From the sequence record ON528735: 64,000 nt of DNA, one strand, 5' to 3'. Under the pieces are notes generated by a model. It worked only from the letters and a program-made list of their open reading frames with translations. It did no database searches and was not told the origin of the DNA. The translations under genes were made by a program, and so were the position numbers. Of the stretch, positions 16,119 through 61,238 are shown one piece after another. Within the stretch, counting starts at the first letter, position 1. Every line of letters starts with the position of its first letter. This DNA is from Shigella phage ESh25.

Positions 16119-16121
16119 CAA

Positions 16122-16146
16122 TGGGGACCTTTCGGTCCCCATATTT
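16122..16146. terminator. Terminator between gene 54 and alt.-3 (convergent)
   Basis: ggggacc-tttc-ggtcccc hairpin then T-rich tract. Confidence 0.65.
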
Positions 16147-16437
16147 TTATTTACGGAATGAAATAAAAGCAGCAACTGAAGCAACAGAGGTTTCTTCAAT
16201 ATAAACCTCAATTTTTACCGGAGCTTCTGACTCAAATTTACCTGTTACTACACCTTGGAAAATACTTTCAGTCTGTTCTGGCTTTGAAAAATTTTCAGAA
16301 GGAAAAATTCCGAACTTTTTATCGGTTCCGAAAATTTTAATAAATTCATCATAAACTGCTTCATTGAAAGCGTTATCAGCAGGAATAACGCCTTCAACTA
16401 CAAGTTCTTGACCTAAAAAGCGTAAAGAAGATTTCAT
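16147..16437 (-). CDS. Hypothetical protein (alt.-3 position)
   Basis: 96 aa; preceded by early promoter cassette and RBS. Confidence 0.6.
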   Translation of the reverse strand: MKSSLRFLGQELVVEGVIPADNAFNEAVYDEFIKIFGTDKKFGIFPSENFSKPEQTESIFQGVVTGKFESEAPVKIEVYIEETSVASVAAFISFRK

Positions 16438-16445
16438 TTTGTGTT

Positions 16446-16498
16446 CCTCATGTTATGTCAGTAAGATTACTATAACACAACACGAGGGACTTGTAAAC
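16446..16498 (-). repeat. 53-bp dispersed repeat, copy 1 (promoter-leader cassette)
   Basis: cctcatgttatgtcagtaaga(t)tactataacacaacacgagggacttgtaaac; second copy at 31770-31822 differs at one base. Confidence 0.7.
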
Positions 16499-16500
16499 TA
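16465..16500 (-). promoter_or_regulatory. Early promoter cassette upstream of alt.-3
   Basis: Minus strand GTTTAC, 18 nt, TATAGT, then leader and GAGGAA RBS; part of a 53-bp repeat. Confidence 0.6.
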
Positions 16501-18555
16501 CATTTTGAACTTTTTAGACATTCCGTTGATGTTAACCAAAGAAGCTAAGATTTGAGAAACTTCGCTTTCCTCTTCTTTTGATTCTTCTACAAGGAATTGA
16601 TTAAATCCAGCCATTGGACGAAATTCACCAGTTTCCATTAGATGGTCGCCATCATATACTGATTCTTCTAATTGTTCAGAAGGAGGAACGATTGTACCTT
16701 CGATTAGATACTTATTATAAGCAGTTTCTTTCATAAAGTAAGTACTTACTTTATTAATCTTCAGTAAAATTCCACGTGGTAGAATAACTTCAGCTTCTGA
16801 TGGAAATCCTGACAAATGACCTGGAACGATAACTTTAACTCGTTCAGCTCCTTTAATTACCATACCCACGCTAGTTTCTGCATCTTCATTAGCATATGTA
16901 GAATGACTACCCATATGCATCAAATCTTCTGCATCAACGGAACCTTCTCCTTCACCAGAAAATACTGCGCCGGAATCATCTAGAGCCATATAGTTTTTAC
17001 CATGCTCACCGAAGATATTTGGTTTAAGCGATGTGGATACGAAGTTCTTGAAATAGAACATTTTGTTTTCAATGTTATGACGCAAAGTTTTAAATGTAAC
17101 TTCTTGTCCACGGTAAAGTGTAGTTCCTGGAGGAAGAACTGAACCTTTAGCGAATGCAGAATCAAGCGTCTCGATGTGCTTAATAGCACGTTCCATATAT
17201 TCTTCACGGGTAGAATCCGGTTTACCTAAAAGGAACGAGTTCATTTCAACATATGAATCTGCGCAATAATCTTCAATTACATCAGACTCAGCCTGAGTCA
17301 ATCCTTTTGGAGTTACTTCAGTGCTTGCATATTCATACGCCTGAGCAGCGGATTCATCAATTAATTTATAAATTCCATTCATTACAAATTGAATAATAGC
17401 TGTCTTTTCATCTGGCGTAGCTTTAGAACCTTTAACTAAATCATTGATAATTTTCTTAATAACATCAAAACTATTAGAAATATTAATATCAGCAAGATCG
17501 CTTAAAATTTTATCAGTTTTATAATCAAAGAATTCTTTATTCTTTAAATATTCTTGAGAACCTTGATATGTTATATCGCTCTGCAACTTGATAGATGGAT
17601 CACGTAAACGTGCATGGGCTAATGCAATATGATTTCGGAAGCTTTCTAGTTCATAATCGTTAGATTTAAAACGAGAAGCACTTCTCATACCACCGATAGC
17701 TCCTTTGCTGAAGTTTGAACCAATCTGAATAACGCCAGAGTTCATTGGTCCTTCTGCTTTATATACCGGAACTTTAGATTCAAACTCTTGATATTTCTTA
17801 GCAGCGAAGCTATCACCCTGAAGTGAAGCATCAACAGTAGAATATTGAGCTTGTGCTGCTAATCGACGACTAATTTTAGTTTTCTGAATAACAGCTTGAT
17901 CCGTACGCTTATCATTTTCTAAAGCAATAGAAGCAGCAACTGCGACAGCTTTAGGAACAGCATTACCTGTTTTAACGTCTACATAAACATCACCGACTTT
18001 CGATTCAACTTTTGTGAATAACTCAGTTGAAATAGGAGGTACACCTGGAATGTCTTCTAAATTGGCATTTTTACGGTAAACCATAATATATGCATATTTC
18101 TTATCATAGTCCCAGATTTCCTTTAAAAGAACATATCGACCTGCTCCTTTAGTACGTACTAAACGGTCAGCAATAACTTGCATTTGACGAGCAGCGCCGT
18201 TTGTTTTACTTTTTAGTACGCGGAATAGGCATGCATCAATTTTATACTGTTTCATTGTTTGAAGAGCAGTATCAAAAACCGCATTAATGACACCAATTGG
18301 ATTTCCACCCAAGTTTTTAAGCTTAACTAACGATAATTTCTCGTTGACGCCTATCATTACGATATGCATCATTTTGTCGCCTGGCTTAACGTTTTTATTC
18401 GTATCACCGCCAGAGGTGTATGTACAAAATCGAAATCCAGGAAGAACGCTTTCTTCACCGGCTTGAATAGCAAAAATTTGAGGTATTTTATGCTTAGGAT
18501 TTAAGTTAACAACCGGCGCCGAAGCGCCGTCAAATAATTCTGTAATAAGTTCCAT
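16498..18555 (-). CDS. Alt-like ADP-ribosyltransferase, second full-length paralog
   Basis: 685 aa; N-terminus almost identical to Alt; ART triad elements LYRGQ, FVSTSL, AEVILPRG. Confidence 0.85.
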   Translation of the reverse strand: MELITELFDGASAPVVNLNPKHKIPQIFAIQAGEESVLPGFRFCTYTSGGDTNKNVKPGDKMMHIVMIGVNEKLSLVKLKNLGGNPIGVINAVFDTALQTMKQYKIDACLFRVLKSKTNGAARQMQVIADRLVRTKGAGRYVLLKEIWDYDKKYAYIMVYRKNANLEDIPGVPPISTELFTKVESKVGDVYVDVKTGNAVPKAVAVAASIALENDKRTDQAVIQKTKISRRLAAQAQYSTVDASLQGDSFAAKKYQEFESKVPVYKAEGPMNSGVIQIGSNFSKGAIGGMRSASRFKSNDYELESFRNHIALAHARLRDPSIKLQSDITYQGSQEYLKNKEFFDYKTDKILSDLADINISNSFDVIKKIINDLVKGSKATPDEKTAIIQFVMNGIYKLIDESAAQAYEYASTEVTPKGLTQAESDVIEDYCADSYVEMNSFLLGKPDSTREEYMERAIKHIETLDSAFAKGSVLPPGTTLYRGQEVTFKTLRHNIENKMFYFKNFVSTSLKPNIFGEHGKNYMALDDSGAVFSGEGEGSVDAEDLMHMGSHSTYANEDAETSVGMVIKGAERVKVIVPGHLSGFPSEAEVILPRGILLKINKVSTYFMKETAYNKYLIEGTIVPPSEQLEESVYDGDHLMETGEFRPMAGFNQFLVEESKEEESEVSQILASLVNINGMSKKFKM

Positions 18556-18558
18556 GAT

Positions 18559-20655
18559 TTATCCTTGAACGAACTTGTAAGGCATGTTTGTAATATCTAT
18601 GCAAGACGCAATAATTCCAAGAGATGATTCTACTTTCTGTTTAACGTTTGATGAAACAAATGATGCAAAGTCAACTCTGTCTTCTATTTCAATATCACCT
18701 GTCATTGCAACTACTTCACCGGTTTCCATTAAATGGTCTCCGTCATAGATTACCGATTCGGTGAGCTCTTCCGTGGTCATAACTTCAGCTTGAATGAGTT
18801 TTGTATTATTAGATGTTGTTCCGTCATTATTAGAAGCATCAGTTATTTTATTAACTTTGACCATCAATCCACGCGGTAGAATAACTTCAGCTTCTGTTGC
18901 TATTCCGAGACTTCCTGGATATACAACATTAACTTTATGAGCTCCATCAATTGCCCATCCTATTTGAACTTTAACGTATTCAGGATTTTCTTTATACGCT
19001 CTTATTTCGTTTGGATTAATAGTTATTCCTTCTTCATTTTTATCAACTGTTAATTCATTGCGAGCTTCTGGTTCTAAAAGACCAATACCAGCATGTGTGA
19101 TTCCAAAACGTCCAAAAATGATAGGAGTTAAAGAAGTAGATACAAAATTTCTGAAGTAGAACACTTTATTTTTAACTAACGCTTCATATATAGGAGCAGT
19201 CATACTTTGAGCACGATAAACTGTAATGCCTTCTGGTATACGGTCACCATTTTCAAAAGCTGAATCTAAGTTATTTATAGCAGATTCAATTTCTTTTTCA
19301 CTCATTACATCATATCGTTCTGGATTGTAGCGGCCTAAAAGAAGATTATTGATGTCAGTATATCCTGAACCGCAATATTCTCTAATGCCACGCTTTTGCG
19401 ATGGAGTATATTTAGAACCATCACGGGCAATAGTAATATCAATCATTGGACCTGCACCAATTCCGGAAAAGCTATAAATCATTCGTTTGAGGAATTTAGT
19501 TTTTGCTGCGTTCCAAGAATTTTTAGTTATTTCTTCCCAGACTTCATCTGGCTGCCCTTTACGAGTTTTATTATGTTTATCAAGCCAATTATCTTTATAT
19601 TCTTCAAAGAATTGATTAACAGCTGCTGCGTATTTCTCTAAACATTTTATTGAAGTAGTTGGTTCATTTTTAATCGCATTAAGAATTACATCTTTAATTT
19701 TTTCAGAAACTTCATTAACCTCACTTTTTGAAAAGAATTTATAGTCATAGTGAAGTTCATCTGCAGTTCCTTCGGCAATAATTTTTGCTGCCTTAGTTTT
19801 AGAAGCTAATGAATTAATTCCAAGCTTCATTTCTTCTGCTTCGGGAATTAAAGGAGCGGTAGCAGGTTTATTAAAATTAGCTGCTGTAGATTCATACTTC
19901 TGGAATAATTCACTTTCAAATCTAGAAGATTCCAATGATTGACTTTGCGCAATTGCTCTACGGGAAATTTTAACTTTAACGATTACAGCTTGGTCAGAAC
20001 GTTTATCATTTTCTTGTGCAATAGATGCTGCAATTGCCTCATTTTTAGTTACTTGAGCTCCAGTATCTTTATTGATATAAACATCACCAACCTTCGATTC
20101 AACTTTAGTAAAGAGCTCGGTACTAATTTCAGGAACTCCTGGAATGTCTTCTAATGATACGTTTTTGCGATGTATAAGAATATATGCATACTTTTTATCG
20201 TAATCCCAGAGTTCCTTAAGAAGGACGTATCTGCCACCTGAACGACTACGGATAAGTCTATCAGCAATAACTTGAATTTGTCGAGCTTGGCCAGCAGTTT
20301 TAGACTTAAGAATACGAAGCATACAAGCATCAATTTTATATTGACGCATTGTTTGCATTGCAACAGTAAAAACTGAATTGATATAATTAATTGGGCTTGG
20401 ACCAAGACCTTTTAATTTAGCAATTGAACCTTTAGCAGTTAATGTAAAAGGAACAATATGCATCATTTTATCGCCCATCTTTAAATCACGATTAGTATCA
20501 CCTCCAGATGTATAGGTACATAAACGAAAGCCTGGTTGTTCAATTGCATCATCAACATGAACTGAAAAAATTTGCGGTATTTTCTTCTTTGGATTTAAGT
20601 TTGTAATCGGAAGAGTAGTATCTTCGTCAAATAATTCTGTAATAAGTTCCATCAT
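18559..20655 (-). CDS. alt: Alt ADP-ribosyltransferase (injected internal head protein)
   Basis: 698 aa; ART R-S-E elements VYRAQ, FVSTSL, AEVILPRG; position next to gene 30 as in T4. Confidence 0.85.
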   Translation of the reverse strand: MMELITELFDEDTTLPITNLNPKKKIPQIFSVHVDDAIEQPGFRLCTYTSGGDTNRDLKMGDKMMHIVPFTLTAKGSIAKLKGLGPSPINYINSVFTVAMQTMRQYKIDACMLRILKSKTAGQARQIQVIADRLIRSRSGGRYVLLKELWDYDKKYAYILIHRKNVSLEDIPGVPEISTELFTKVESKVGDVYINKDTGAQVTKNEAIAASIAQENDKRSDQAVIVKVKISRRAIAQSQSLESSRFESELFQKYESTAANFNKPATAPLIPEAEEMKLGINSLASKTKAAKIIAEGTADELHYDYKFFSKSEVNEVSEKIKDVILNAIKNEPTTSIKCLEKYAAAVNQFFEEYKDNWLDKHNKTRKGQPDEVWEEITKNSWNAAKTKFLKRMIYSFSGIGAGPMIDITIARDGSKYTPSQKRGIREYCGSGYTDINNLLLGRYNPERYDVMSEKEIESAINNLDSAFENGDRIPEGITVYRAQSMTAPIYEALVKNKVFYFRNFVSTSLTPIIFGRFGITHAGIGLLEPEARNELTVDKNEEGITINPNEIRAYKENPEYVKVQIGWAIDGAHKVNVVYPGSLGIATEAEVILPRGLMVKVNKITDASNNDGTTSNNTKLIQAEVMTTEELTESVIYDGDHLMETGEVVAMTGDIEIEDRVDFASFVSSNVKQKVESSLGIIASCIDITNMPYKFVQG

Positions 20656-20683
20656 AGCCTCTCTAGTGTTTATTCTATTTATA

Positions 20684-20706
20684 AAATTAAAGGCCCGAAG
20701 GCCTTT
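20684..20706 (-). terminator. Hairpin/terminator upstream of alt
   Basis: aaggcc-cgaa-ggcctt hairpin with T-rich flank on the minus strand. Confidence 0.45.
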
Positions 20707-20893
20707 AGTAATCTAGTGGTAAGAGAGTACGATATATTTCAAACTTTGGTCCTTTTTCATAGGCATCAAATGTTTCTGTAAATTTATTATAAGCGTATGC
20801 ATCTACAAATTCGAGAATGACTTGTGATACAGAAGTAGAAACATCTCCACCTTCTTTTTGAGCAATGACAATTGTTTCTAAGTAAGCTTTCAT
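20705..20893 (-). CDS. Hypothetical small protein
   Basis: 62 aa ORF; start overlaps the ligase stop. Confidence 0.5.
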   Translation of the reverse strand: MKAYLETIVIAQKEGGDVSTSVSQVILEFVDAYAYNKFTETFDAYEKGPKFEIYRTLLPLDY

Positions 20894-24644: not shown

Positions 24645-24999
24645 ATTCGTTAAGAACTACATCAAAGATTGCTTCAAGATGCTCAGGTTTAGCTCTGTTA
24701 CTCAGAATATGACGAATCCAAGTTTTAACCAAAAGCTTGCGATTATCACCATTCCAGCAAGGATGAGTCCCTAAATCGCGTTGACGAAAATCATCATCCA
24801 GAGCGATTTTGAAGTTTGAACCTTCCATTGTGATTGAAACCGTGATGCCATTTTCAAATCGCATATAAACGTAGTTAGGAGTCATATACTGTTCAATTTC
24901 GCATACTGATCCATTTTGATGTTTCCAAAGGCAGATAGTATCAATAGAACCTGCAATACCATTAGAAACATATTTACGTTCAAAGTTGATGTAGTTCAT
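24634..24999 (-). CDS. Hypothetical protein (30.7 position)
   Basis: 121 aa; early promoter immediately upstream. Confidence 0.6.
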   Translation of the reverse strand: MNYINFERKYVSNGIAGSIDTICLWKHQNGSVCEIEQYMTPNYVYMRFENGITVSITMEGSNFKIALDDDFRQRDLGTHPCWNGDNRKLLVKTWIRHILSNRAKPEHLEAIFDVVLNEFDI

Positions 25000-25029
25000 T
25001 TTTATTCTCCGAGATGTTTAATTGCGGTA

Positions 25030-25068
25030 CAGGTATATAATATCATATCCTGTACCAAAGTAAACAAT
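25030..25068 (-). promoter_or_regulatory. Early promoter upstream of the 30.7-position gene
   Basis: Minus strand GTTTAC, spacer, GATATTAT; 8-bp inverted repeat ggtacagg/cctgtacc brackets the -10. Confidence 0.5.
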
Positions 25069-25400
25069 TATTTTACTACTTTCCAGTGCTTCATGTCAAG
25101 TTTACCAACTTTTTTCATCTTCTCAATTAAGCGTTCGGCACGTTGGCGAGCTGTAACATAATACCATTCGCCTAATTCATTTTGTTCAATTTTTCCAACG
25201 ATTACTGTATTCAATTCATAAATCCAACCAGTAAAGAAATTATGAACTTGAATTGTAAAGGTGAAATCTGTTCCCATACCTTCTGTTGTTTCTACTTCAA
25301 TAATATCACCTTCAACTGCCATTAAGAACCACATAGTTTCATCATATTTACCATTGAAGCATTTAGTTTTAACTGTAGCGTTCAGATTAATCGTTTTCAT
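25068..25400 (-). CDS. Hypothetical protein (30.8 position)
   Basis: 110 aa; early promoter immediately upstream. Confidence 0.6.
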   Translation of the reverse strand: MKTINLNATVKTKCFNGKYDETMWFLMAVEGDIIEVETTEGMGTDFTFTIQVHNFFTGWIYELNTVIVGKIEQNELGEWYYVTARQRAERLIEKMKKVGKLDMKHWKVVK

Positions 25401-25419
25401 TTTATTCTCCTTTGTTTGT

Positions 25420-25460
25420 GTAAGATAATACTATCACAAAGGAACCATACTGTAAACAAC
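25420..25460 (-). promoter_or_regulatory. Early promoter upstream of the 30.8-position gene
   Basis: Minus strand GTTTAC, spacer, GATAGTAT. Confidence 0.5.
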
Positions 25461-25485: not shown

Positions 25486-25508
25486 AAGGACTCCCGAAGG
25501 AGTCCTCA
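25486..25508 (-). terminator. Terminator after the 30.9-position gene
   Basis: ggactcc-cgaa-ggagtcc hairpin followed by a U-run on the minus strand. Confidence 0.6.
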
Positions 25509-28227: not shown

Positions 28228-28463
28228 AGTACGCCATACACCCTTTGTGCTTCAACTAATCCATCAAAATCCAGTTTAAGATGCGATATTTGATCGCCAT
28301 CACCTGGATTCACAATTACTAATACTGAACGAGGAGTTTCGGTAATAACACGAACCGATGTTTCAGGAAATCGTTCAGAAACCTTATTTACCAATTCCTG
28401 TGCAAATAGCTTAACTTTTTCTTGGAATTCTTTAACAGTAATCGGTTTTTCACTTAGCAGCAT
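28224..28463 (-). CDS. Hypothetical protein (cd.2 position)
   Basis: 79 aa; early promoter upstream. Confidence 0.6.
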   Translation of the reverse strand: MLLSEKPITVKEFQEKVKLFAQELVNKVSERFPETSVRVITETPRSVLVIVNPGDGDQISHLKLDFDGLVEAQRVYGVL

Positions 28464-28487
28464 TTTGTTTTCCTCATTTGTTTGGTA

Positions 28488-28525
28488 GAGCTATAATATC
28501 ACAACTCTACCGTAAAGTAAACTAT
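28488..28525 (-). promoter_or_regulatory. Early promoter upstream of cd.2
   Basis: Minus strand GTTTAC, spacer, GATATTAT; inverted repeat ggtagag/ctctacc brackets the -10. Confidence 0.5.
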
Positions 28526-30917: not shown

Positions 30918-31267
30918 TTAGAAAGGTCCTGGATGTCTTCTGCGAACTTGTTGAAGGAGTTGTTGATTTGTTTTTCAACCAATCCTGGCTTACGAGCCAC
31001 CACATCCGCCTTCTTTGCATCTTTGCGCAGTTTTTCATTTTCACGCTCAATATCAGCAATCGCCTCACGATTTTTATTATTCATCGCATCAATATAATTA
31101 TACTGAATTCGCAAATTATTTAATGCTAAGGCGTTTTCATTGGCCGTTTTTGTAATTTCTACAACAGACGTTTCTAATCTTTCTACCTTATTTTTTAAAA
31201 TAATAGATGTTCCGCCAAATGCTATTACAAGTAATAGCAATCCAGCTGTAAAATTACTTACATGCAT
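30914..31267 (-). CDS. Inner-membrane spanin (Rz-like)
   Basis: 117 aa; N-terminal TM helix then coiled-coil; overlaps the o-spanin start. Confidence 0.7.
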   Translation of the reverse strand: MHVSNFTAGLLLLVIAFGGTSIILKNKVERLETSVVEITKTANENALALNNLRIQYNYIDAMNNKNREAIADIERENEKLRKDAKKADVVARKPGLVEKQINNSFNKFAEDIQDLSK

Positions 31268-31764
31268 AAAGTTTTAATAACCTCTATAATATCGTCTTGA
31301 GAAAGACCGTTAATTAAAATATGATGTTCAGCCGGAGATTTAGAAATTTTAAAGCACGCCGCAACATCTTCTGCCATATCCGATGCGCTACGATTTGGAT
31401 TACTAATTCCAAGACGATGCTTTCCTGTCAAAGGATTAACGATGATATAGCATTTGCAGCTATTGATATGAACATTAGGTTGAGTCTGATTAATAAACAC
31501 TTCACAATCATACTTAGCGAGTTGATTTTCTAAAAAGACTTTCATCTCCTCAACCGCATCAGGAAGCATATCACGGGCTTGCTCAAGATGACGATTTCGA
31601 TATTCTTTAATGGTCGTTTTCCGCTTGACTTGCTTAGCTAAATCTTTCTTAAGATCGGTGATATATCCAACTCGACGATTTCCTTTGAATACAGAAATCC
31701 CATCTGTAGTATCACCGTATGCTTCAACGACCATTTCAGTAGTAATAAGCTGCAAATCCATCAT
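31258..31764 (-). CDS. alc: Alc, host transcription termination/unfolding protein
   Basis: 168 aa (T4 Alc 167); synteny between the pseT block and rnlA. Confidence 0.85.
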   Translation of the reverse strand: MMDLQLITTEMVVEAYGDTTDGISVFKGNRRVGYITDLKKDLAKQVKRKTTIKEYRNRHLEQARDMLPDAVEEMKVFLENQLAKYDCEVFINQTQPNVHINSCKCYIIVNPLTGKHRLGISNPNRSASDMAEDVAACFKISKSPAEHHILINGLSQDDIIEVIKTLCM

Positions 31765-31769
31765 AAAGT

Positions 31770-31822
31770 CCTCATGTTATGTCAGTAAGACTACTATAAC
31801 ACAACACGAGGGACTTGTAAAC
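31770..31822 (-). repeat. 53-bp dispersed repeat, copy 2 (promoter-leader cassette)
   Basis: Same sequence with c in place of t at one position; flanks are unrelated. Confidence 0.7.
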
Positions 31823-31825
31823 AGC
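31788..31825 (-). promoter_or_regulatory. Early promoter cassette upstream of alc
   Basis: Same 53-bp sequence as at 16446-16498 with one mismatch. Confidence 0.6.
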
Positions 31826-33413
<1,588 letters not shown>

Positions 33414-39586: not shown

Positions 39587-39829
39587 TCAAACAGACTTTT
39601 TCACAATTTTCCAATCAGCTTTAAACTGTTCAACATCAGAATGGTAAATCCAAAACCCTGCGCTTTCTCCATCCTCATAAAGAGGGCATCCATCACATTC
39701 ATCTTCCCATCCCATATCACGCAAAAGACGTTCAGCTTTTTCAACAAGTTCAGAATTTTTACCGATGATATTAAAATACCATTTACCTCTAACTTCTGAA
39801 TCTTTGATGCTCTGGCGTTGTAATCTCAT
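39587..39829 (-). CDS. Hypothetical protein (frd.2 position)
   Basis: Internal Met MRLQRQ... preferred because an early promoter lies inside the longer track ORF (39587..39919). Confidence 0.5.
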   Translation of the reverse strand: MRLQRQSIKDSEVRGKWYFNIIGKNSELVEKAERLLRDMGWEDECDGCPLYEDGESAGFWIYHSDVEQFKADWKIVKKSV

Positions 39830-39851
39830 TTTATTCTCCTCAAGTTGATAG

Positions 39852-39888
39852 GGTAATAGTATCACACTACTACCCTGTTGTAAACAAT
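39852..39888 (-). promoter_or_regulatory. Early promoter upstream of the frd.2-position gene
   Basis: Minus strand GTTTAC, spacer, TACTAT; inverted repeat agggta/taccct brackets the -10. Confidence 0.5.
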
Positions 39889-40813: not shown

Positions 40814-40851
40814 ATTATTTTCCTCTTTGATCATCAGCAGTATTGCCGATA

Positions 40852-40890
40852 GTTGTATAGTACCATGGAAGGACAAGGATGTAAACAGTT
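40852..40890 (-). promoter_or_regulatory. Early promoter downstream of the gene 32 terminator
   Basis: Minus strand GTTTAC, spacer, TACTATACAACTATC; A/T-rich upstream tract shared with the promoter at about 57541. Confidence 0.5.
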
Positions 40891-40904
40891 TTGTGAAAAA
40901 ATTT

Positions 40905-40940
40905 TTGAAATAAAAAAGGGGACCTCTAGGGTCCCCAATT
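40905..40940 (-). terminator. Terminator after gene 32
   Basis: ggggacc-tctag-ggtcccc hairpin followed by TTTTTATTT on the minus strand. Confidence 0.65.
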
Positions 40941-40958
40941 AATTAGTAATATAATCTA

Positions 40959-44229: not shown

Positions 44230-47200
44230 ATGGCCGAGATTAAAAGAAAGTTCAGAGCAGAAGATGGTCTGGACGCAGGTGGCGATAAAATAATCAACGT
44301 AGCTTTAGCTGATCGTGCCGTAGGAACTGACGGTGTTAACGTTGATTACTTAATTCAAGAAAACACAGTTCAACAATACGATCCAACTCGTGGATATTTA
44401 AAAGATTTTGTAATCATTTATAATAATCGTTTTTGGGCAGCAACGGATAATATTCCAAAACCTGCTGGAAATTTTAATAGAATTCGTTGGAAAGCATTAC
44501 GTACTGATGCCGTATATACAACTGTATCATCTGGACCATATCAATTAAAATCCGGAGAAGCAATTTCAGTAGATACATCAGTTGGTAATGACATTGAGTT
44601 TACTTTACCACCTTCTCCGCTCGATGGAGAAACAGTAATAATTCAAGATATCGGTGGAAAACCTGGTATAAATCAGGTTAAAATAAGTTCTTCAAATCAG
44701 AGCATTGTTAATTTTAGAGGTGAACAAGTACGTTCAGTTTTAATGACTCATCCAAAGTCACAGATGATATTCATTTTTAATAATCGTTTGTGGCAAATGT
44801 ATGTTGCTGATTATAGCAGAGAAGCTGCAATTGTTACTCCATCGACTGCATATCAAGCACAATCTAATGATTTTATCGTGCGTAGATTTACTTCCGCAGC
44901 GCCGATTAATATTAAACTTCCGAGATTTGCTAATCATGGCGATATTATTAATTTCGTTGATTTAGATAAATTAAATCCACTTTATCATACAATTGTCACG
45001 ACATATGATGAAACAACTTCAGTACAAGAAGTTGGAACTCATTCCATTGAAGGCCGTACATCGATTGACGGTTTCTTGATGTTTGATGATAGTGAAAAAT
45101 TATGGAGATTGTTTGACGGGGATAGTAAAGCACGTTTACACATTATAACGACTAATTCAAACATTCGTCCAAATGAAGAAGTTATGGTATTTGGTGCGAA
45201 TAATGGAACAACTCAAACGATTGAACTTCAGCTTCCAACTAATATTTCTGTTGGTGATACTGTTAAAATTTCCATGAATTACATGAGAAAAGGACAAACA
45301 GTTAAAATCAAAGCTGCCGGTGAAGATAAAATTGCTTCTTCAGTTCAATTGCTGCAATTCCCAAAACGCTCAGAATATCCACCTGAAGCTGAATGGGTGA
45401 CTGTTCAAGAATTAGTTTTTAACGGTGAAACTAATTATGTTCCAGTTTTACAGCTTGCTTATATTGAAGATTCTGACGGAAAATACTGGGTAGTACAACA
45501 AAACGTTCCAACAGTTGAAAGAGTCGATTCTTTAAATAATTCTACTAGAGCAAGATTAGGCGTAATTGCTTTAGCTACACAAGCCCAAGCTAACGTCGAT
45601 TTAGAAAATTCTCCACAAAAAGAATTAGCAATTACTCCAGAAACATTAGCTAACCGTACTGCTACAGAAACTCGTAGAGGTATCGCAAGAATAGCAACTA
45701 CTGCTCAAGTAAATCAGAACACTACATTCTCTTTTGCTGATGACCTTATCATCACTCCTAAAAAGCTGAATGAAAGAACTGCTACAGAAACTCGTAGAGG
45801 TGTTGCTGAAATTGCTACGCAGCAGGAAACTAATACAGGTATCGATGATACTACAATCATCACTCCTAAAAAGCTTCAAGCTCGTCAAGGTTCTGAATCA
45901 TTATCAGGTATTGTAACTTTTGTATCTACCGCAGGAGCTACCCCAGCTTCTAGTCGTGAATTAAATGGTACAAATGTTTACAATAAAAACACTAATAATT
46001 TAGTTGTTTCGCCTAAAGCACTGGATCAGTATAAAGCTACTCCAACACAGCAAGGTGCAGTAATTTTAGCAGTTGAAAGTGAAGTAATTGCTGGACAAAG
46101 CCAAGAAGGATGGGCAAATGCGGTTGTAACGCCAGAAACGTTACATAAAAAGACATCAACTGATGGAAGAATTGGTTTAATTGAAATTGCTACGCAAAGT
46201 GAAGTTAATACAGGAACTGATTATACTCGCGCAGTCACTCCTAAAACTTTAAATGACCGTAGAGCAACTGAAAGTTTAAGTGGTATAGCTGAAATTGCTA
46301 CACAAGTTGAATTCGACGCAGGCGTCGACGATACTCGTATCTCTACACCATTAAAAATTAAAACTAGATTTAATAGTACTGATCGTACTTCTGTTGTTGC
46401 TCTATCTGGATTAGTTGAATCAGGAACTCTCTGGGACCATTATACCCTTAATATTCTTGAAGCAAATGAGACACAACGTGGTACACTTCGTGTAGCTACA
46501 CAAGTTGAAGCTGCTGCAGGAAAATTAGATAATGTTTTAATAACTCCTAAAAAGCTTTTAGGTACTAAATCTACCGAATCGCAAGAAGGTGTTATTAAAG
46601 TTGCAACTCAGTCTGAAACCGTGACTGGAACGTCAGCAAATACTGCTGTATCTCCAAAAAATTTAAAATGGATTGTGCAGAGTGAACCTACTTGGGCAGC
46701 TACTACTGCGATAAGAGGTTTTGTTAAAACCTCATCTGGTTCAATTACGTTCGTTGGTAATGATACAGCTGGTTCTACGCAGGACTTAGAACTATATGAG
46801 AAAAATGGTTATGCAGTATCACCATATGAATTAAACCGTGTATTAGCAAATTATTTGCCGTTAAAAGCAAAAGCTGCTGACGCAAATTTATTAGATGGTC
46901 TAGATTCATCTCAGTTCATTCGTAGGGATATTGCCCAGACAGTTAATGGTTCACTAACCTTAACCAAACAAACGAACCTGAGTGCCCCTCTTGTATCATC
47001 TAGTACTGCTACGTTTGGTGGATCAGTTTCAGCAAATAGTACACTAACTATTTCTAATACTGGAACGGCAACTCGTCTGATTTTTGAAAAAGGACCTCAA
47101 ACTGGGACGAACCCAGCTCAAACGATGACAGTCAGAGTGTGGGGAAATCAATTTAGCGGGGAATCAGACACAACACGTTCTACCGTATTTGAAGTTAGTG

Positions 47201-57160: not shown

Positions 57161-57191
57161 TTTAATCTCCGTTTCAGTTCATTTATTTGAT

Positions 57192-57230
57192 AGGTCTATA
57201 GTATCATGTTTAAAGCAGAAGTAAACACTT
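57192..57230 (-). promoter_or_regulatory. Early promoter for motA
   Basis: Minus strand GTTTAC, spacer, TACTATAGAC; leader shares a 23-bp repeat with the next promoter. Confidence 0.55.
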
Positions 57231-57493: not shown

Positions 57494-57535
57494 TTTTTGT
57501 ATCTCCGGGTTGTTTGTTTCAGTTCATTTATTTGA

Positions 57536-57575
57536 TAGTTGTATAGTACCACAGTATGCTTTGGTTGTAAACCGT
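57536..57575 (-). promoter_or_regulatory. Early promoter for the 57266-57493 gene
   Basis: Minus strand GTTTAC, spacer, TACTATACAACTATC. Confidence 0.5.
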
Positions 57576-57597
57576 TTTGTGAAAAAATTTTTGAAAT

Positions 57598-57628
57598 AAA
57601 AAAGGGAGAGCCGAGGCTCTCCCTAAAA
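57598..57628 (-). terminator. Terminator after the gene 52 / small membrane ORF unit
   Basis: gggagagcc-gag-gctctccc hairpin followed by TTTTTTATTT on the minus strand. Confidence 0.65.
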
Positions 57629-57778
57629 TTACTGCATGACTGTGATAACCGTCATGATAACACGTTGAATTCCGAACGCAAGAAGACCTCCTGCTACGGC
57701 AGGAACAACACCTAAACCCGCCAGTAAAATGCCACCAGATACTAATGCAGCGCTTGTGATACCAATGAATGGACTCAT
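57629..57778 (-). CDS. Small Gly-rich membrane peptide coupled to gene 52
   Basis: About 49 aa (MSPFIGITSAALVSGGILLAGLGVV...); ATG overlaps the gene 52 stop; terminator hairpin follows; hand-counted. Confidence 0.45.
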   Translation of the reverse strand: MSPFIGITSAALVSGGILLAGLGVVPAVAGGLLAFGIQRVIMTVITVMQ

Positions 57779-60552: not shown

Positions 60553-60652
60553 AATAAACGTTTAATACATCAATCATTAAAACGATTGGGAATATACTCA
60601 AAACTATTAGTATTATAACTACATTCCATATAGCTTTAATAATCTTTTTCAT
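60539..60652 (-). CDS. Small membrane peptide
   Basis: About 37 aa from the internal Met (MKKIIKAIWNVVIILIVLSIFPIVL...), downstream of an early promoter. Confidence 0.4.
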   Translation of the reverse strand: MKKIIKAIWNVVIILIVLSIFPIVLMIDVLNVYFGFM

Positions 60653-60674
60653 TTTCTGTTCCTCCGTAGTTGAT

Positions 60675-60712
60675 AGGGTAATAGTACCACGGAGGAACAG
60701 TCTTGTAAACCA
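60675..60712 (-). promoter_or_regulatory. Early promoter in the ndd.x cluster
   Basis: Minus strand GTTTAC, spacer, TACTATTACCCTATC. Confidence 0.45.
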
Positions 60713-60894: not shown

Positions 60895-61158
60895 TCATAG
60901 TTCAATCTCAGCGATTTTCATTTCATTACTATTAATAGCCGCTTTAAGACTATCTGAAAGAATTACATTCCAGTGGTCATTCATATGACCATTAACTAAG
61001 CGTGTAATTTCTTCAGGAGTTGAAAAATAAGGCTGATCAGACTCCCAGTGCGATAATCCTAAGCGAGTATAAATCATGCCTTCATCATCGCTAGAATATT
61101 CAACTGACACAAACTCATCAGTTATTTTATGTTTAGCGTAATAAAATTTAAATTTCAT
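60895..61158 (-). CDS. Hypothetical protein
   Basis: About 87 aa from the internal Met MKFKFYYAKH after a GGAG RBS; the longer track ORF would contain the upstream promoter. Confidence 0.5.
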   Translation of the reverse strand: MKFKFYYAKHKITDEFVSVEYSSDDEGMIYTRLGLSHWESDQPYFSTPEEITRLVNGHMNDHWNVILSDSLKAAINSNEMKIAEIEL

Positions 61159-61181
61159 TTTATTCTCCAAATCCGTATCAG

Positions 61182-61218
61182 TTGATAGTTGTATAGTACC
61201 ACGGTCCTTGTGGTATGT
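61182..61218 (-). promoter_or_regulatory. Early promoter downstream of denB
   Basis: Minus strand GTTTAC, spacer, TACTATACAACTATC; taccac/gtggta inverted repeat in the spacer. Confidence 0.45.
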
Positions 61219-61238
61219 AAACTGTTTTGTGAAATTTT

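Follow-up and report, generated by a model that had tools for sequence, protein, structure and literature searches.

An early-promoter cassette of a T4-like Shigella phage with a spacer complementary to its own Shine-Dalgarno region

The alc and alt.-3 loci and their shared cassette

Shigella phage ESh25 is represented here by a 64,000-nucleotide (nt) stretch of sequence record ON528735, referred to as the window. The window is a segment of a Tequatrovirus (T4-like coliphage) that is distinct from T4, with best matches that are 98-99% identical. Two of its loci, both on the minus strand, contain near-identical copies of an early-promoter cassette, one before alc and one before alt.-3. At the alt.-3 locus, the minus-strand order is alt, a full-length Alt paralog, and alt.-3, followed by gene 54 on the opposite strand. 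At the alc locus, the order is rnlA, alc, and pseT.3. The alc gene (31258..31764, -) encodes an inhibitor of host transcription, and alt.-3 (16147..16437, -) encodes a conserved hypothetical protein of 96 amino acids (aa). In T4, both genes are early as RNA and as protein (PMC9697503 supplement). Their early expression in ESh25 is presumed by analogy with T4, which has the same cassettes.

The cassette is a direct repeat of 54 nt, located at 16445-16498 and 31769-31822 with 98% identity (family D9 of the window repeat search). The alc copy (31769..31822, -) fills the rnlA-alc intergenic gap and is taken as the ancestral, resident one, with a core homologous to the alc cassettes of other genera. 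The alt.-3 copy (16445..16498, -) is taken as derived, with an alc-type core between alt.-3-type flanks. The sole mismatch between the copies, A/G on the minus strand, falls directly after the -10 element, and the sequences flanking them are unrelated. A pattern search allowing three mismatches returned exactly these two sites in the window, where 0 were expected from 100 shuffles. Two open reading frames (ORFs) on the opposite strand (16439-16555, + and 31610-31921, +) span the copies and share the peptide SSCYVSK(I/T)TITQHEGLVN. They were rejected as genes; the peptides are alike only because both frames read the repeated DNA.

Both copies are also present in T4, each with its own single change. 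Megablast of the 54-mer matched 740 places in 448 phage records, and all organism names were of Tequatrovirus type. Phages phiD1 and RB51 were listed with one place each, yet the second copy is present with a G-to-A change.

Read on the minus strand, each copy is composed of GTTTACA, a 17-nt spacer ending in TGt, TATAGT, about 7 nt to the predicted transcription start (+1), a leader, and the Shine-Dalgarno (SD) motif GAGGA. The ATG follows 4 nt after GAGGA at alc and 7 nt after it at alt.-3. The -35 element GTTTACA, with its TTTACA hexamer, is located at 31816..31822 (-) for alc and 16492-16498 for alt.-3, and the extended -10 element TGtTATAGT at 31793..31801 (-) and 16469-16477, respectively. 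From the usual spacing, +1 is predicted to be an A at 31786 (alc) or 16462 (alt.-3) on the minus strand. The corresponding predicted starts in T4 are at ~136300 and ~123057. A consensus scan of the window independently returned both sites as TTTACA/17/TATAGT with the TG before the hexamer, and the cassette matches the T4 early promoter consensus (PMC2988021, PMC4122927). The element is almost certainly a promoter. It resembles the T4 early promoters (Pe, the 'uber' UP/-35/TGn/-10 class) in GTTTACA, the 17-bp spacer, TGn, TAnnnT, the AT-rich upstream region, and the early genes served. It differs from them only by an added complementarity between spacer and leader, which is seen in 4 of the 13 such promoters in the window.

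An earlier note on this DNA, made from its letters alone, had described a near-identical, 53-bp cassette pair with one mismatch and unrelated flanks. The pair, the mismatch, and the flanks are borne out by the repeat search and the shuffles, but the repeat is 54 nt long. The 18-nt spacer in the note reflects a count from GTTTAC; from TTTACA, the same spacing is 17 nt. The note's complete early promoter, leader, and ribosome-binding site are found as TTTACA/17/TG-TATAGT and a GAGG SD, in keeping with early alc and alt.-3 expression in T4 (PMC9697503). The wider family of early-promoter cassettes that it proposed exists as well, as 13 minus-strand promoters of the GTTTAC type. The note did not include the stem-loop of the cassette, which sequesters the SD in the predicted fold and covaries across genera.

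Pairing between the promoter spacer and the leader

The sense strand of the cassette folds into an 18-bp hairpin made up of 14 bp, a 2-nt bulge, and 4 bp more, with the sequence CCUCGUGUUGUGUU-AU-AGUA(AUCU)UACU-GACAUAACAUGAGG. The alc copy is extended by AAGUCC/GGACUU, giving a helix of ~22 bp, bulges included. The 5' arm, CCUCGUGUUGUGUU, is part of the promoter spacer and carries the anti-SD CCUC (31798..31811, -; 16474-16487 in the alt.-3 copy). The 3' arm, GACAUAACAUGAGG, belongs to the transcribed leader (31770..31783, -) and includes the SD GAGG at 31770-31773. In the alt.-3 copy, the 3' arm is located at 16446-16459 (-) and the SD at 16446-16449. The -10 element occupies the upper stem and loop. 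The predicted +1 is placed between the two arms, as the first base of the 3' one.

Over 96 nt, the alt.-3 copy is predicted to fold with -23.3 kcal/mol and the alc copy with -31 kcal/mol. The fold z-scores are -3.9 and -4.3, respectively, and none of 200 shuffles was equally stable. The stem is AU-rich, with no GC-rich stem of the terminator type. Thermodynamic prediction gives the alc SD an unpaired probability of 0.62 in RNA started at the promoter versus 0.008 in RNA that reads through from upstream. For alt.-3, the predicted values are 0.13 and 0.001.

The 13 GTTTAC-type promoters of the window were assigned to T4 genes by BLAST. In four of them, the spacer is significantly complementary to the 18 nt before its own AUG (0-3 of 1000 shuffles as good), with z-scores of -6.7 for alc, -3.9 for alt.-3, -7.9 for ndd.4, and -4.1 for 30.8. 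In the remaining nine, this complementarity is indistinguishable from that of shuffles. The cassettes before ndd.4 and gene 30.8 are independent and have the same design. At ndd.4 (60652..60710, -), the spacer CUGUUCCUCCGUGGU pairs with the SD-bearing ACUACGGAGGAACAG in a perfect 15-bp stem (0/1000 shuffles). At 30.8 (25400..25457, -), the spacer UUCCUUUGUG pairs with CACAAACAAAGGAG (1/1000 shuffles), and an anti-SD TCTCC straight after the -35 is also found in RB69, EcS1, and a Dhakavirus; in these three, the helices are weak and the loops long. The stem sequences of ndd.4 and 30.8 are unrelated.

Conservation at alc was followed through the rnlA-alc spacers of 10 annotated phages of other genera and 42 IMG/VR loci. 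Single-protein queries of IMG/VR gave close relatives only, and an alignment query was used for distant loci. The design is kept, with differing stem sequences, in at least ten Tevenvirinae lineages: Tequatro-, Karam-, Kagamiyama-, Gelderland-, Jiaoda-, Braga-, Dhaka-, Kanagawa-, and Winklervirus, and the loci L062/L064. In all of them, the anti-SD arm directly follows GTTTACA, the loop contains the -10, and the 3' arm contains the SD. Among the paired arms are TCTCCATTTGG/CCAAATGGAGA, TCCTCATCAG/CTGATGAGGA, ACCTCTCATTT/AAATGAGAGGT, and CCCCGTTTTGT/ACAAAATGGGG.

No consensus structure emerged from MAFFT with RNAalifold on the raw upstream regions, since the register of the arms differs from genus to genus. 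A covariance model built from the Tequatrovirus copies produced a messy alignment with antisense and spurious hits and was not used. A position-anchored pair table, a chimera test, and pair counts in the folded register were used in its place. For the pair counts, the stem arms were cut in each sequence's own folded register, and artificial GC anchors kept the MAFFT alignment gapless. Across the 11 basal pairs, 96% of cells pair, compared with 62.9% in shuffles (0/500 as high), both sides have changed in 10 of the 11, and the covariation score is 0.896 versus 0.243; this structural alignment leans towards structure because the arms were extracted in their own folded register. Pairing drops to 40-50% in slid registers.

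The chimera test is independent of alignment. Cognate spacer-leader duplexes have a mean of -20.5 kcal/mol versus -10.7 kcal/mol for non-cognate ones, and the cognate outranks every other partner in 10 of 11 rows and in all 11 columns. Variants within Tequatrovirus mostly keep the pairing. A G.U pair becomes A-U in RB51, phiD1, and L007, and in L011 a change of C-G to U.G is accompanied by one of G.U to A-U, with pairing kept. The alt.-3 copy of L010 has two changes that disrupt pairing. The hairpin is very probably under selection.

A promoter that was merely duplicated, with a functionless complementarity and an identity owed to recent duplication, would suit the small divergence of the copies, which differ at only 0-4 positions per genome in every genome examined. 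The complementarity at alc, however, is kept in at least ten lineages with differing sequences, and shuffled spacers almost never pair so well. Mere duplication is extremely unlikely.

The inverted repeat could also act as DNA, either as the operator of a dimeric regulator over the -10 or as a cruciform that tunes the promoter, with half-sites that coevolve with the protein. It is centred on the -10 and start site, and in most genera it is a near-perfect palindrome in which both strands are equally stable. A single protein fits poorly with an arm spacing that ranges from ~12 to 21 nt between genera and with arm sequences that differ among alc, ndd.4, and 30.8 of one genome. One arm is always the SD. 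In the Tequatrovirus hairpin, the sense strand (-24.4 kcal/mol) is much more stable than the antisense strand (-15.4 kcal/mol) because of three G.U pairs, and these G.U(T) pairs are mismatches on the other strand. A role as a DNA element is very improbable.

Two further observations concern alc loci of other genera. In Gaprivervirus, the alc locus contains an additional ORF as well as a terminator-like GGGG..CCCC hairpin. In Mosigvirus Shf125875 (L017, 241-304), the annotation places the alc start at the rnlA stop. This start is probably too far upstream, since the related L054 has a promoter, a spacer hairpin, and an SD 60 nt further on.

Predicted read-through RNA and a proposed role in translation

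The rnlA stop codon is 3 nt upstream of the alc cassette, and the alt.-3 cassette shares its first G with the stop codon of the Alt paralog. A terminator scan found none between rnlA and the alc cassette and none between the Alt paralog and the alt.-3 cassette. The rnlA gene (gene 63; 31826..32950, -) is the likely source of read-through RNA for the alc cassette. For the alt.-3 cassette, the likely source is the Alt paralog (685 aa; 16498..18555, -), which adjoins the late gene alt (18559..20655, -). In T4, alt is classed as late and alt.-1/alt.-2 RNA as middle; rnlA is early as RNA and late as protein (PMC9697503). Upstream of alt (20676..20707, -) is an intrinsic terminator at 20688-20707, then a late promoter, TATAAATA, at 20676-20683. 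Upstream of rnlA is a candidate MotA-type middle promoter (32977..33002, -), with TGCTT at ~-30 and then TACTAT, recognized by its sequence from the consensus in PMC2988021. Later transcripts should cross both cassettes, given the upstream late and MotA-like promoters and the absence of a terminator between. The alt/alt.-3 unit ends at a bidirectional terminator hairpin between alt.-3 and gene 54 (16121..16142, no single strand).

The cassette hairpin resembles an intrinsic (Rho-independent) terminator in being a stable intergenic stem-loop. It differs by its AU-rich stem, its lack of a U tract, and the promoter inside its loop. Genuine terminators of the window (16121-16142, 20688-20707, and 25486-25507) have a GC-rich stem followed by T runs (T6). 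After the alc stem, no U tract is found in any lineage compared, and intrinsic termination is judged unlikely on these sequence grounds.

Termination or attenuation is the published role of the stem-loop in promoter-early stem-loop cassettes (PeSLs; Arbiol et al. 2010; Comeau et al. 2014). In these papers, PeSLs are also described as recombination sites that drive the shuffling of ORFans in hyperplastic regions, with flanked genes moved by mini-circle excision and insertion. A PeSL as defined there combines an AT-rich region with an early promoter (TTTACW-N17-TAYWAT in T4/PST), a stem-loop that can extend over the -10, and an SD with ATG (PMC2839356, PMC4122927), and the ESh25 cassette fits this anatomy. 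PeSL copies are likewise described there as similar across loci, with evidence of exchange between copies, and one RB49 PeSL stem-loop terminated well in a reporter (PMC2839356). The ESh25 cassette differs in that it has no terminator tail, its flanked genes are positionally invariant, and the 3' arm of its stem is the SD, which goes unmentioned for PeSLs in the sections of both papers that were consulted. The published roles also leave the constant SD in the 3' arm and the covariation of the arms unexplained. A PeSL in the published sense is an unlikely explanation of this pair.

Promoter-dependent gating of the SD is the function preferred here, with moderate confidence. A sigma-70 early promoter of the T4 type would have a 17-nt spacer complementary to its own leader and SD. 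Transcription from this promoter would start where the 3' arm starts, so that the RNA would be without the 5' arm and its SD would be free. Read-through RNA, i.e., rnlA middle transcripts at alc and alt late transcripts at alt.-3, would carry both arms and fold into a hairpin of 18-22 bp with the SD buried. With the SD buried in read-through RNA only, translation of alc and alt.-3 would be tied to their own early promoter and hence to the first minutes of infection. The hairpin may be a translational insulator where the intergenic gap is too small for a terminator, and the design is taken as ancestral at alc across Tevenvirinae. Among the lineages that keep the design (class A), read-through RNA mostly has a predicted SD accessibility of 0.00-0.03, versus 0.3-0.8 for promoter-started RNA.

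Selection on the pairing does not reveal its purpose, and the hairpin could be an element of RNA processing or stability. It might be a site for RNase III or RNase E between the rnlA and alc messages, or a protective stem at the 3' end of the upstream mRNA. The ~22-bp helix of the alc copy, bulges included, has the size of an RNase III substrate. At 11-17 bp, however, the stems of other genera are too short for RNase III, and the SD as obligatory pairing partner is left unexplained. A post-transcriptional review has no RNase III processing at these sites. A role in RNA processing or stability is quite improbable.

Several points weigh against SD gating. Promoter-started alt.-3 RNA has a predicted SD accessibility of only 0.13 because of a weak local fold (-4.5 kcal/mol). 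SD occlusion is not universal at alc, since the stems of L049, L066, and L058 bracket the -10 and end short of the SD, and L054 (Mosigvirus-like), L068, and L070 have a small hairpin wholly in the spacer. In most genera, the strand that folds is unassignable because the inverted repeat is near perfect. The copied hairpin may be neutral at alt.-3, since alt.-3 in other genera lacks SD occlusion despite having alt upstream. In the window itself, the promoters of frd.1 (39829-39885, -), cd.2 (28463-28522, -), and 30.7 (24999-25065, -) have stems of 7-12 bp that bracket the -10 without involving the SD. A broader role for promoter-overlapping stems is possible. No upstream terminator was found at frd.1, cd.2, or 30.7.

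Promoter-in-hairpin occlusion of a ribosome-binding site is already published, as are T4 early promoters and PeSLs. In the T4 genes e, soc, 49, and I-TevI, and also in Aeh1 mobE, a promoter lies inside a hairpin with the SD and/or AUG in the 3' arm (PMC3014915). Long upstream transcripts of the T4 genes fold and are untranslated, and transcripts from the internal promoter are without the 5' arm and are translated (PMC3014915). The cassette is like these in that the SD is paired in the predicted long transcript, the promoter is within the hairpin, and the structure is conserved with compensatory changes. In those genes, the internal promoter is late (TATAAATA) and late or toxic genes are silenced on early RNA. 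The cassette promoter, in contrast, is a sigma-70 early promoter whose -35/-10 spacer is itself the anti-SD arm, and the late promoter TATAAATA was not found in the cassette. The proposed timing logic would, as judged from sequence, be reversed, with early genes silent on later read-through RNA.

The early-promoter version, its conservation at alc, and the alc-to-alt.-3 transplant were not found in the literature searched, outside which lay the main T4 genome review and older promoter papers. The same literature had no later paper that tests or reinterprets PeSLs. If SD gating is true, it is an early-gene mirror image of the e/soc/49/I-TevI mechanism. The early-to-middle switch of T4-type phages would gain a post-transcriptional layer; early shut-off in these phages is incompletely explained, and AsiA does not account for it (Hinton review, PMC2988021). 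One stretch of DNA would be under three constraints, as promoter spacer, RNA helix, and ribosome site. The hairpin predicts that cloned alc or alt.-3 is not expressed from upstream promoters unless the 5' arm is removed. PeSLs, proposed as terminators and recombination sites, would also be reinterpreted. A wider proposal, offered tentatively, is that PeSLs may function chiefly as insulators in the RNA, with the spacer serving as anti-SD in the subclass of alc, alt.-3, ndd.4, and 30.8. Immediate-early synthesis may then end with early-promoter shut-off despite persisting read-through RNA, in a system that may be Tevenvirinae-wide and spread by patch recombination.

Origin of the alt.-3 copy and other features of the window

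Homologues of alt.-3 in Gapriver-, Dhaka-, Mosig-, Marfa-, Kanagawa-, and Kagamiyamavirus have the alt / alt.-3 / gene 54 synteny and a ~60-nt spacer. The early promoter of alt.-3 in these six genera has a different core without an anti-SD arm, and its small hairpin is confined to the promoter spacer (CCACAAGGATGTGG, GCACAAGGAAGTGC or CACATGGATGTG). The flanks of the window alt.-3 cassette align with alt.-3 of the other genera, TCAAAATGTAGTTTACAA upstream and ACATGAGGAA.ACAAAATGAAATC downstream. The ~37 nt between these flanks are identical to the window alc cassette. The Tequatrovirus alc cassette is itself homologous to that of other genera, e.g., T4-type CCTCGTGTTGTGTTATAGTAGTCTTAC aligns with Dhakavirus CCTCATGATGTGTTAGTATAGACTTAC.

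The alc-type core within alt.-3-type flanks, together with the cross-genus homology of the alc cassette, identifies alc as the donor and alt.-3 as the recipient, and copying probably went from alc to alt.-3. Because alt.-3 of other genera has a different core, the copy is regarded as a Tequatrovirus-specific patch conversion. In a Tequatrovirus ancestor, the alc cassette core would have replaced the resident alt.-3 promoter core via a homologous-recombination patch, leaving the 54-nt repeat. The exchange junctions are placed in the shared -35 and SD motifs, GTTTACAA and ACATGAGGA, and the exchange is older than the Tequatrovirus radiation. It offers a clean natural case in which a regulatory cassette passed from one gene to another through recombination at promoter and SD motifs that both have. 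Ongoing concerted evolution of the copies was considered and is not needed; the differences are private to single lineages, and both consensuses are the same 54-mer.

Phage G28 (NC_054916.1) has the 54-mer at three places, of which the located copy is that of alt.-3 (L074 5001-5054). The third place would be a further cassette transplant. A spacer hairpin motif, CCACAAGGA..GTGG, is found both in the ndd.6-region promoter of the window (61158-61222, -) and in alt.-3 promoters of other genera (L024, L026, L028, upstream of position 301). This is a further sign of promoter cores common to unrelated loci.

Exchange between loci is also a part of the PeSL explanation. The alt.-3 copy shows that the cassette core recombined between loci, and other loci of the window have promoter cores and leaders in common (families D1, D5, and D7). 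The shuffling of flanked genes, however, finds no match in the genomes compared. An alc match was found in 1136 phage records, and in nearly all genera sampled from them the gene comes after rnlA; for alt.-3 (836 records with a match), all loci fetched have the gene flanked by alt and gene 54. Excision between the two copies would remove 15.3 kb, including the essential genes 30 (DNA ligase) and 31. What the pair records is a single past event, not gene shuffling or mini-circles, and, unlike PeSLs as described, the cassettes do not lie in hyperplastic regions beside variable ORFans.

The earlier note had invoked PeSLs and modular shuffling. The PeSL anatomy (early promoter, stem-loop, SD, and ATG, as described in PMC2839356 and PMC4122927) and the movement of a cassette core between loci both stand, but modular shuffling is not supported for this pair. 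The presence or absence of the flanked genes across relatives, which the note had set beforehand as decisive, came out as invariant positions of alc and alt.-3. Nor do the cassettes simply lie beside small accessory ORFs, as alc is not such an ORF. The short inverted repeats that it placed at the -10 are found at ~25030, 28495, and 39855, but 'short' does not suit the cassette's own element, a hairpin of 14 + 4 bp that includes the SD. The other repeat families that it cited were all recovered by the repeat search. Family D7 (57171-57206 / 57516-57551) is 92% identical and family D5 (40848-40945 / 57534-57631) 78% identical, and family D1 consists of six promoters, among them those at 57530 and 61180.

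Family D5 is a composite of terminator, AT-rich UP region, and promoter that is common to frd.3 and a 75-aa ORF. Classical terminators precede frd.3, orf75, and 30.8. The 75-aa ORF has no match in the T4 segment compared (112-169 kb), and it has a near-identical leader, CTATCAAATAAATGAACTGAAAC, to that of motA.

Other features of the window are of minor interest here. At 16498-20655 (-) are two tandem full-length alt genes, with direct repeats (families D2, D4, and D8) ~2094 nt apart. At this site, T4 has alt and the decayed alt.-1/alt.-2, and phage G28 has the same two-copy layout as the window. An Rfam scan found no family above threshold in the whole window and none at the cassette loci; there are thus no group I intron hits in the window. 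The alc-frd.1 interval is ~1.7 kb shorter than in T4, which would fit td and nrdB genes without introns or homing endonucleases. Gene 34, for the proximal tail fibre (45631-46556, +), has internal direct repeats of 29-68 nt that are 66-79% identical (families D3 and D10).

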